DNA of 64,000 nt. It comes from Lama glama. Taxonomy: Eukaryota. A program made the position numbers and the translations under genes. The notes below the pieces were generated by a model, which was not told the DNA's origin, made no database searches, and saw nothing but the letters and a program-made list of their open reading frames with translations. Positions 36,500 to 41,884 of this stretch are shown here, piece after piece. Position 1 is the stretch's first letter, and each line of letters opens with the position of its first letter. Location of the stretch: contig CM052831.1 in the NCBI GenBank assembly GCA_028534125.1, positions 23,746,001 through 23,810,000 of the forward strand, written 5' to 3'.

Positions 36500-39400
36500 A
36501 GGGTCCTCATGTAGAGACACGGGACGGTACCACCAGAGCCCTTCCAACAGCTCTCCGTAGTCACGTGAGGCCCTCGGGGGCGGAGCCCACGGGAACCCCG
36601 CCTCCCGGAAGTCAGGGGCTGGGGGCTAAGAATGTGCTGTCTGACTGGTTGATGGTGATGTCATAGGTACCATTTGGGGCGGGCCAGAGGCCTTATCCTG
36701 GAGTTCTCCGCCGGTTCCAAGCAGGAGCCGCGCCCCTTGGAGTATTTCGGCACTCAGCCCTTAACCTCTCCGCGGTCCAGGGACGCCTGCGCCGTTTTCC
36801 CGATGAGCTGCAGCCCGTTGTCGCTGCTGCCTTTGCAGACTTTGCAGAGCACCTCCTGGGTTATTTCTCCGGGCTATCCTGGAACCCGCGGAGCCCCCTC
36901 CCACCAAACAATGAGTCCGCCATAGGGGCGGAGCCACCCATTGTGCCAATAGAAACAGTGAATTTTCGATAGGAACGGTCGGCTTTCCCTGCCCTCCCGC
37001 CCTGACTTGTCTTCTGTGACGTCTATTCCGCGGCGTTTGCCATTGGTCAGGCAGCCCGACGTCAGCCAGGAGTTACACAGCGCCAGGAGAACTGAGCTTC
37101 TATTAGTCCCTTCAACGGATTAAGGGACGCGGTCGTAGCGGGAGAGGGGCGGGGACCCGAGGAAGCCGGGTCCGTAGGCTTGTGGCAACGCCGGGTTCCA
37201 CGTGGCATTCCAGAGCACTCGAGACTCGCCGCCTGGAGACGGGTGTAGCTTCCAGTGGAAGAGCCCCAGCCAAGGAGACTGCTGTGGGTCGGCAAGGCCG
37301 GGAAGAGTTTGGCCTCTGCTTCCGCCTCGGGCAGGTCACCTCCTATCCCTGCTCCGTGGGGCGCTCCAAGCAGATGGTCGCGACATGTTTCATGACTTAA
37401 AACTCAATGATCGAATAGTTAAAGTTATTTTGGGGGCTGGAGGCGCCCCAGGCCCCGTCGAGCCATCGTCCCCTCCAAACCCAGGATTCCACATGGTATT
37501 CCCACCCAATAGTCGTGAGAACGCGTTCTCTGCATGTCATGGGCACCAAATTTTCAGACCAAAATCCGGGACAGGCAGGGTTTGGAACTAGTGCTCAGGA
37601 AGGGGGACAAGAGATACACAAGCAGAGGAAAGGCTGGGAGACGGAGCTGGGACAGCGCTCTAGAGGGAGGGAGGCGGATGAGGGCGGTGGCCACGAGGAG
37701 GAGGGTGGATCCAGGGGTGGTGAACCTTCGCGCCCTGTTCAGCACCGTGGGTAGCACTTATACCCTGCCCTCAATAAAGATGGCTGCAACAACTTCGGTA
37801 TATAGAGCTGCCATGCGCGACGGCCTGTACCATTGGGTTTGGGGCTTCCGGGCGGAGGTGGAATGAACCATCACAGCGGCCGGGAGCCATGTTGGAGCGG
37901 CGGGAGGCGGCAGCAGCGTCGGGGATGCTATGGTGGGGGCAGCAAAAGCCGGGCCCACACGTCAAAGGGGCTCTGGCCACGGAGTAGATGGTGTCCAGAG
38001 GGTGGCGGCGGCGCGGAGCGACGGGCAGAGAGGCGGGGGATTGGGGCGGCGGAAGGGGTTCGGGTGGGGGCCCGAGCAGCGAGGCGGGCCCAAGGTCTGG
38101 ACCCGGGCGGGGGACGGTGGAGGCGGTGTGGGGAAGTGGTGGGTGATGGCGAGGCGGCAGCCGTGGTGGGGTCTCAGGGGGCCGACGACCCCACTACTCC
38201 TGCTCCTGCTCCTCCTCTCTTTGTTCCCTCTTAGCCAGGAGGAGCTGGGGGGCTGCAAGGGCCAAGACTGGGACCCGGGGGTAGTTGCCGCTACTGGGCC
38301 AGGGGCGCGGATCGGTGGCGGAGCCTTAGCTCTTTGTCCCGAGCCGCCTGGGGTCCGAGAGGATGGAGAGCCTGGCCTGGGATTCAGGGAACCTGCCTTC
38401 GTGGGGCTCCGAAGGGAAAAGCAAAGCGCCCAAAGCGGTCGAAAGCCCTCTGAGCAGCCGAGGCTGGAAGCAGAATACGGGGTCCAGGCATTTGGCAGCC
38501 GCGGGCGGGAGACAGGACAAGGACCAGGATCTCTGTTATGCTGGCGCCCAGAGGTCTCCTCTTGTGGGCGGACAGGGTCCTTGCGAAGAGAGAGTCTGTC
38601 GCCAGAGGCTCTGTCCCCAGGGGTCTCGGGTCCTGAGAACAGCTCTCCCTTCCCTTCGGACCTTCTCGTTCGGCTGCGTGGTTCCCAGTCGATGTCCTCC
38701 CAGAGGAATATTGGGAGAAGTGACCCCAAAAAAGTGGGAATCACGCGCTGCTGCGGGGAGTTGTGGGCGCCGGGGCGCAGGGGTCAGAGAGAGAGAACCG
38801 CGACATTCCGAGCGAAGAGGACAGTCCCCCAGTCGGACTGCCCTCCCGAGGTTGCGGTATCTGGCTCTGAGCTGGATTCAGCACCTCGCACACCGAGGAC
38901 AGCTCCCGCGTCTGGTTCAGCACCCCGCGAGTCTCGGACAGCTCCCGAGCCGACGCCCGAGCGCATGCGCTCCCATGGTCTCTTCCGCCGCTTCCTTCCG
39001 CAGCGCCCCGGGCCGCGCCCCCCTGGGGTCCCAGCCCCGCCAGGAGTATGGAGAATTTCTCCAGCCGGCCGGGTCCGTCCCCGTCGCGCTGCGAACCGCC
39101 ACCCACAGTTTCCGCAGTACAACTACCAGGCGCTAGTGCCCGAGAATGAGGCGGCGGGTACCGCGGTGCTACGCGTAGTGGCTCAGGACCCAGACGCGGG
39201 TGAGGCCGGGCGCCTAGTCTACTCCCTGGCTGCTCTCATGAACAGCCGCTCTCTGGAGCTGTTCAGCATCGACCCGCAGAGCGGCCTCATCCGCACAGAG
39301 GCCGCTCTGGACCGCGAGAGCATGGATCGCCACTACCTGCGCGTGACAGCACAGGATCACGGCTCGCCGCGCCTCTCAGCCACCACCATGGTGGCCGTTA

Positions 39401-40050
39401 CTGTGGCCGACCGCAACGACCACGCGCCGGTATTTGAGCAGGCGCAATACCGGGAGACGCTTCGTGAGAACGTGGAGGAGGGCTACCCTATCCTGCAGTT
39501 GCGTGCCACAGACGGTGATGCGCCCCCCAACGCCAACCTGCGTTACCGCTTTGTGGGGCCGCCGGCTGCGCGCGCGGCCGCAGCCGCCGCCTTCGAAATT
39601 GATCCGCGCTCGGGTCTCATCAGCACCAGTGGTCGCGTGGACCGCGAGCACATGGAAAACTACGAGCTGGTAGTGGAGGCCAGCGACCAGGGCCAAGAGC
39701 CCGGGCCTCGGTCAGCCACCGTGCGTGTGCACATAACTGTGCTGGATGAGAACGACAACGCGCCCCAGTTTAGCGAGAAGCGCTACGTGGCGCAGGTGCG
39801 CGAAGATGTGCGCCCCCATACGGTGGTGCTACGCGTCACGGCCACCGACCGGGACAAGGACGCCAACGGACTGGTGCATTACAACATCATCAGTGGCAAC
39901 AGCCGCGGCCACTTTGCCATCGACAGCCTCACGGGCGAGATCCAGGTGGTGGCACCTCTGGACTTTGAAGCAGAAAGAGAGTATACCTTGCGCATCCGGG
40001 CTCAGGATGCGGGCCGCCCACCGCTGTCCAACAACACAGGCCTGGCCAGC
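36500..40050. promoter_or_regulatory. Large CpG island covering the CELSR3 promoter and the 5' part of exon 1
   Basis: Sustained CpG enrichment. E-box TCACGTGA 36561, ETS CCGGAAGT 36605, CCAAT 36946, ATTGG 37042, GACGTCA 37058. Confidence 0.85.
37738..37758 (+). promoter_or_regulatory. Canonical-spacing RE1/NRSE (REST site) in the CELSR3 promoter
   Basis: TTCAGCACCGTGGGTAGCACT against consensus TTCAGCACCnnGGACAGCGCC. Lone right half-site GGACAGCGCTC at 37650-37660. Confidence 0.75.
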
Positions 40051-41884
40051 ATCCAGGTGGTGGACATCAATGACCATACTCCTATCTTTGTCAGCACTCC
40101 CTTCCAGGTCTCTGTCCTGGAAAATGCACCTCTGGGCCACTCAGTCATCCACATTCAGGCAGTGGATGCAGACCATGGGGAGAATGCCAGATTGGAGTAC
40201 TCCCTCACTGGTGTGGCACCTGATACACCCTTTGTGATAAACAGTGCCACTGGCTGGGTCTCTGTGAGTGGTCCCCTAGACCGTGAGTCTGTGGAGCATT
40301 ACTTCTTTGGTGTGGAGGCCCGAGACCATGGCTCACCTCCTCTCTCAGCCTCAGCCAGCGTAACGGTGACTGTGCTGGATGTTAACGACAATCGGCCTGA
40401 GTTCACGATGAAGGAGTACCACCTACGGCTGAANNNNNNNNNNNNNNNNNNNNNNNNNNNNNNNNNNNNNNNNNNNNNNNNNNNNNNNNNNNNNNNNNNN
40501 NNNNNNNNNNNNNNNNNNNNNNNNNNNNNNNNNNNNNNNNNNNNNNNNNNNNNNNNNNNNNNNNNNNNNNNNNTGACACTGGCTCTGCCACTGGACTACA
40601 AGCAGGAACGCTACTTCAAGCTGGTGCTAACTGCATCTGACCGTGCCCTTCATGATCACTGCTATGTGCACATCAACATTACAGATGCCAACACTCACCG
40701 ACCTGTCTTTCAAAGTGCCCACTACTCAGTGAGTGTGAATGAGGATAGGCCAGTGGGTAGCACTGTAGTGGTCATCAGTGCCTCTGACGATGATGTGGGT
40801 GAGAATGCTCGAATCACCTATCTCCTGGAAGACAACCTGCCCCAGTTCCGCATTGATGCAGACTCAGGGGCCATTACACTGCAGGCCCCACTGGACTATG
40901 AGGACCAGGTGACCTACACGCTGGCTATTACTGCTCGGGACAATGGAATACCACAGAAGGCAGACACTACTTACGTGGAGGTGATGGTCAATGATGTGAA
41001 TGATAACGCTCCACAGTTTGTGGCCTCCCATTACACAGGGCTGGTCTCTGAGGATGCCCCACCTTTCACCAGTGTCCTGCAGATCTCAGCCACTGACCGG
41101 GATGCTCATGCCAATGGCCGAGTCCAGTATACTTTCCAGAATGGGGAAGATGGGGATGGAGATTTTACCATTGAGCCCACCTCTGGCATTGTCCGAACAG
41201 TGAGGCGGCTGGATCGGGAGGCAGTGCCAGTGTATGAACTGACTGCCTATGCAGTGGACCGAGGCGTGCCCCCGCTTCGGACTCCAGTCAGCATCCAGGT
41301 GACAGTGCAGGATATTAATGACAATGCACCCGTCTTCCCGGCTGAGGAATTTGAGGTGCAAGTGAAGGAGAACAGCATTGTGGGCTCAGTGGTGGCCCAA
41401 ATCACTGCAGTAGACCCTGACGAAGGTCCCAATGCTCATATAATGTACCAGATCGTGGAGGGGAACATCCCTGAGCTGTTCCAAATGGACATCTTCTCTG
41501 GAGAGTTGACGGCACTCATTGACTTGGACTATGAGGCTCGCCAGGAATATGTGATTGTGGTGCAGGCCACATCAACCCCTCTGGTCAGTCGGGCCACTGT
41601 GCACGTCCGCCTGGTTGACCAGAATGACAACAGCCCTGTGCTCAACAACTTTCAGATCCTCTTCAACAATTATGTATCCAACCGCTCAGACACCTTCCCC
41701 TCAGGCATTATTGGGCGCATCCCAGCATACGATCCTGATGTCTCTGACCACCTCTTCTACTCCTTTGAGCGGGGCAATGAGTTGCAGCTGCTAGTGGTCA
41801 ACCAGACCAGCGGGGAGCTTCGACTCAGCCGCAAGCTAGACAACAACCGTCCACTGGTGGCCTCCATGTTGGTGACTGTTACAG
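38146..41884 (+). CDS. CELSR3: CELSR3 exon 1 (signal peptide, prodomain, cadherin repeats; contains 140 N)
   Basis: MARRQPWWGL...MLVTVT; G|gtgagc. Furin-type RVRPRR precedes the first cadherin repeat. Confidence 0.96.

Follow-up and report, generated by a model that had tools for sequence, protein, structure and literature searches.

The locus studied here raises the question of why a stretch of prodomain codons in exon 1 of CELSR3 should spell a split REST/NRSF site (RE1/NRSE) twice, and whether this repeat has been kept for its DNA or for its peptide. The DNA analysed, hereafter the window, is a stretch of 64,000 nucleotides from Lama glama. By analogy with the human gene, the repeat is very probably the orthologue of a tandem REST/NRSF element that consists of two head-to-tail gapped RE1 units written in prodomain codons, each of which would likely bind one REST and which would likely help to silence CELSR3 outside neurons.

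Position and geometry of the exon 1 element

The prodomain encoded in the window shares 99.7% identity over 330 aa with a protein labelled Vicugna pacos CELSR3. The features on which the following description is based are listed below, all in window coordinates.

37738..37758, + strand: canonically spaced RE1-like site 5' of the ATG; perfect left half, 2-nt gap, right half off consensus at 4 of 10 positions
38146..41884, + strand: coding part of CELSR3 exon 1 (signal peptide, prodomain, cadherin repeats); open reading frame with ATG, splice donor at its end, orthologues named CELSR3
38877..38885, + strand: RE1/NRSE left half of unit 1; 0 mismatches; third base of D244, S245, A246, two bases of P247
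38886..38896, + strand: gap of unit 1, 11 nt; residues 248-250 variable, length constant
38897..38906, + strand: RE1/NRSE right half of unit 1; 1 mismatch; R251 T252 A253 P254
38907..38915, + strand: linker between the units, 9 nt; 3 synonymous differences from human primers
38916..38924, + strand: RE1/NRSE left half of unit 2; 0 mismatches; third base of G257, S258, A259, two bases of P260
38925..38935, + strand: gap of unit 2, 11 nt; residues 261-263 variable, length constant
38936..38945, + strand: RE1/NRSE right half of unit 2; 1 mismatch; R264 T265 A266 P267

The tandem units are located at +731 to +799 relative to the CELSR3 ATG at 38146 and encode, in frame, CELSR3 residues 244-267. Each of them is composed of a perfect 9-nt left half, an 11-nt gap, and a 10-nt right half with one mismatch to the consensus used in an earlier, sequence-only reading of this DNA, and the 9-nt linker between them gives the overall order left-11-right-9-left-11-right. 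That reading had placed the two units at 38877-38906 and 38916-38945 with a 39-nt period, had given their peptides as DSAPRTPRTAP and GSAPRESRTAP, and had described the half-sites as alike and the spacers as diverged between the copies. All of this was reproduced at the same coordinates and in frame from the ATG: the 39-nt units are identical at 28 of 39 bases, comprising 19/19 in the half-sites and 9/20 outside them, with 4/11 in the spacers, which is in keeping with an in-frame duplication of some age.

A search of the 64-kb window with the gapped pattern (gap of 0-15 nt) returned two matches, which are the two CELSR3 units, while 100 shuffled controls gave a mean of 0.01 matches and in no case two. 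Tandem Repeats Finder at a score of 30 made no call on the 39-nt repeat, because the copies are too diverged. When the element was searched against its own genome, the single match was the window itself, and no second copy was seen.

The promoter RE1 that had been proposed at 37738 is present, but it is weaker than was implied, since its right half departs from the consensus as listed above, and no canonical RE1 site with three or fewer mismatches was found in the whole 64-kb window. A lone right half-site with one mismatch lies at 37650-37659, ~90 nt 5' of the promoter RE1-like site. As well, a gapped RE1 look-alike with a 12-nt gap and three mismatches occurs on the minus strand of CELSR3 exon 1 (38607-38637). 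This candidate was excluded, because its residues are only moderately conserved and do not display a half-site-shaped pattern like that of the main element.

As for the gene model, the frame upstream of the CELSR3 ATG is open for 72 codons (37930-38145) from another ATG at 37930, and the orthologue predictions P0001-P0003 possess a similar open extension without the Met of 37930; the extension may be a GC-rich 5' leader that is open by chance. Several CELSR3 isoforms of cat and rhinoceros, 4063-4210 aa in length (P0011, P0013-P0015, P0034-P0037, P0039, and P0040), additionally carry Pfam PF00916 and PF01740, which we take to be sulfate-transporter domains. Their presence on CELSR3 isoforms suggests annotated read-through into the neighbouring SLC26A6.

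Relation to the human element and to other REST sites

The tandem gapped REST element of CELSR3 is already known and in print for human. According to Tang et al. (2021, PMC8096226), exon 1 of human CELSR3 shows a REST ChIP-nexus peak over an arrangement described as 'left-11bp-right-9bp-left-11bp-right', and the presence of REST there is supported by ChIP-nexus, ChIP-seq, and EMSA. In EMSA, each single unit produced one shifted band and the pair produced two, which the authors interpret as a single REST on each full unit, the reading that they prefer; they also allow one with four half-sites. The same paper states that the CELSR3 sites had earlier been found important for neural expression, a result that it attributes to Jia et al. 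(2014, PMC4187713). For mouse, the available part of Johnson et al. (2008, PMC2573930) reports that in ES and neural stem cells Celsr3 is REST-occupied and is strongly induced by dominant-negative REST, and that it has tandem RE1 motifs within 1 kb.

The CELSR3 primers of Tang et al. were made for human genomic DNA, and five of the eight map to 38872-38984 with 0, 1, 2, 3, and 3 mismatches, while the remaining three have no convincing match within the window. In view of the matching geometry and this mapping, the element in the window is therefore considered the orthologue of the published human one. They share the gene and its first exon, the order and orientation of the half-sites, and the three spacings. 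Of the 82 bases covered by the primers, none of the 37 within half-sites differs, against 6 of the 45 elsewhere (one-sided Fisher p 0.023; one species pair); besides these six bases, the two differ in species, and binding of REST and repression in the llama are predicted by analogy. Among the public sequencing runs listed for this stretch, none is recorded as ChIP.

The sequence-only reading had warned that REST control of this gene might already be published, and had named a REST summit in the human or mouse orthologue as its check. Its warning was borne out by Tang et al. (PMC8096226), whose ChIP-nexus peak covers these four half-sites. Its central proposal, namely that the repeat may be kept as a DNA silencer rather than for its peptide, gains support from the REST binding published for human (PMC8096226) and from the conservation pattern described below, which it had predicted; the joint action with the promoter site at 37738 that it further proposed is hypothetical.

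Similar arrangements have been described in other neuronal genes. Head-to-tail tandem RE1 groups are found, e.g., in SNAP25 and L1CAM, and were proposed to originate by tandem duplication, according to the available part of Johnson et al. (2006, PMC1557810), the main text of which, as far as available, does not name CELSR3. Like the CELSR3 units, these groups have two sites within 100 bp, lie head to tail, and likely arose by tandem duplication, whereas they were found with a canonical matrix and the CELSR3 sites are gapped and located in coding sequence. The clustered protocadherins offer a comparable case, since their variable exons hold NRSEs, among them a tandem pair in PCDH-gamma-a (PMC8096226); here too, REST sites occur within exon 1 of neuronal genes of the cadherin family, but the genes are different and the sites are canonical or right-half-only. 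In addition, two methylation papers on Down syndrome, in the parts available, report differential methylation of CELSR3 exon 1. Hypermethylation of this exon was described in Down-syndrome cortex, with CELSR3 expression raised and REST lowered; one of the two papers places CELSR3 among the top REST targets, and the tandem element is located in neither of these parts.

Conservation over the half-sites

Between human and the window, third codon positions differ at 0 of 12 sites within the half-sites and at 5 of 14 outside them (p 0.030; one species pair, 82 bases). A broader comparison was made with proteins. Two protein searches yielded 7 and 54 hits, and from these 61, the removal of 3 that lack the N-terminus and 5 duplicates left 53 orthologues, which are related sequences (about nine are from cats) and in which, as proteins, the codons are invisible. 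The named orthologues come from rodents, primates, carnivores, bats, ungulates, armadillo, elephant, tenrec, and aardvark.

Among the 53 N-termini, modal conservation reaches 94.7% for the 14 half-site residues, compared with 55.9% for the 8 spacer and linker residues and 74.0% for the prodomain. When the half-site mask was slid along the prodomain, its true position ranked 1 of 265; an analysis limited to the first five proteins gave the same rank. The two S-A pairs show no variation (53/53), and a fixed-spacing pattern, which was written after viewing the alignment, matches 53/53 orthologues; therefore, the element is without internal indels. Several orthologues carry a 4-residue deletion directly behind unit 2, and a one-codon deletion that would give an 8-bp gap occurs in 0/53.

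The substitutions seen in half-site residues appear, from the protein sequences, to fit the REST motif. The commonest change in the left half is P to L (2/53 and 13/53 in the two units), which is also an ordinary CpG change. The base affected is the ninth in the left half, a position that is barely conserved in gapped REST sites (Tang et al., PMC8096226). R to G at 251 can preserve the two G bases of the right half. Other right-half changes among the orthologues are T to I or R and A to V, and the positions that they hit are presumably degenerate in the REST matrix.

Given the peptide and the codon use of exon 1, the chance of codons that spell the motif is 1.1e-3 and 6.6e-4 per unit, values that are post hoc and come from units that are not independent. 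At 244 and 257, none of the residues without a T-ending codon (E, K, Q, M, and W) occurs, which agrees with a constraint on the motif, but this test is weak, as the same holds for 10 of 43 comparable columns. Of the 54 hits, which were drawn from 3034 scored candidates, none was named as an orthologue from a marsupial or a non-mammal; since the query region is fast-changing, these missing hits do not date the element. In the literature searched, mostly without subscription journals, no codon-level evolutionary analysis of the element was found, and the pattern of conservation described here for placental mammals may add slightly to what is known about it. Work by Stergachis in 2013 reportedly dealt with exonic factor binding and codon choice.

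The near-constant residues over the half-sites among mammals are likely due to REST sites that overlie those codons. The repeat might instead be kept for its peptide, for example, because this part of the prodomain undergoes Ser/Thr glycosylation or is recognised by a protease or a partner, with REST binding as a by-product, and it is true that further short stretches of the prodomain are well conserved too and that amino-acid conservation by itself cannot separate selection on DNA from selection on peptide. However, the third codon positions are constant in the half-sites and free alongside (in one species pair), the limits of conservation coincide with those of the half-sites down to single residues, dissimilar amino acids occupy the position ahead of each S-A-P, and REST binding has been published for human, all of which make a purely peptide-based explanation highly improbable. 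As to the origin of the pair, it is unlikely that the two units arose separately as gapped sites that share the motif without duplication. The low agreement outside the half-sites and the missing tandem-repeat call would suit such an origin, but both units have the rare 11-nt gap, an identical off-consensus base in the right halves, and one reading frame; an Arg follows both left halves in most orthologues; and head-to-tail RE1 groups were ascribed to tandem duplication in the available part of PMC1557810.

Gap width and mode of REST binding

The units share with the gapped RE1/NRSE class (PMC8096226; PMC9903721) the normal order and orientation of the halves, a widened gap, and the relaxed ninth base, and they differ from it in that the gap is 11 bp in both units instead of the enriched 7-9 bp or the repressing 8-9 bp. 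They differ as well from the canonical 21-bp RE1/NRSE, in which the gap is 2 bp. Genome-wide, REST gaps were found to be 2 or 7-9 bp (Tang et al., PMC8096226), and in a genome-wide reporter assay, according to the available part of Mouri et al. (2022, PMC9903721), repression occurred only at 8- and 9-bp gaps and not at other spacings or with flipped pairs. The remark made from the sequence that an 11-nt spacer is at or beyond the usual widened range agrees with these values. Altered-gap REST sites have also been catalogued by Choi and Lee (2024, PMC11025195), the available main text of which is without CELSR3.

This gap width underlies the main rival to one REST spanning each unit, namely half-site binding. 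Because 11 bp would be too wide to span, each unit would hold one REST mainly via one half, and the promoter site would do most of the repression, with the exonic pair as a booster. The gap is indeed beyond both the 7-9 bp class and the 8-9 bp that represses in reporters, and one EMSA band per unit is equally compatible with half-site binding, which Tang et al. name themselves. Against this, all four half-sites and the exact gap width are retained in 53/53 orthologues, even though several of these carry the 4-residue deletion that follows unit 2, and Tang et al. prefer one REST per full unit; we regard half-site binding as improbable. A tentative and rather doubtful further reading is that the 11-bp gap itself is selected, as the loss of one codon would make an optimal 8-bp site of either unit and yet is seen in 0/53 orthologues. 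REST would then bind in an additional way, either across 11 bp or as two cooperating molecules 39 bp apart, and this part of the prodomain would owe its peptide to a silencer that has been retained since placental mammals arose.

REST recruits co-repressors, and REST bound to the element would recruit them ~0.7-0.8 kb behind the start codon, where the unit pair would add to the repression of CELSR3 in non-neuronal cells. With one REST spanning each unit, fingers 7-8 would contact the left half and fingers 3-5 the right half, and finger 6 would bridge the gap out of the groove, as in the finger model of Tang et al. (PMC8096226), which was simulated for an 8-bp gap and not for 11. The 39-nt unit would have arisen by in-frame tandem duplication before the placental mammals split, and what fixed S-A-P and R-T-A-P would have been selection for the DNA motif, more so than for the peptide.

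As a discovery, the element matters little, as the element itself, its geometry, and its REST binding are in print for human. As an example, it would be a clean case of coding DNA with two jobs, in which silent changes in the half-site codons of CELSR3 could alter expression, and its conserved 11-bp gap is well suited to probing the widest span that REST can bridge.
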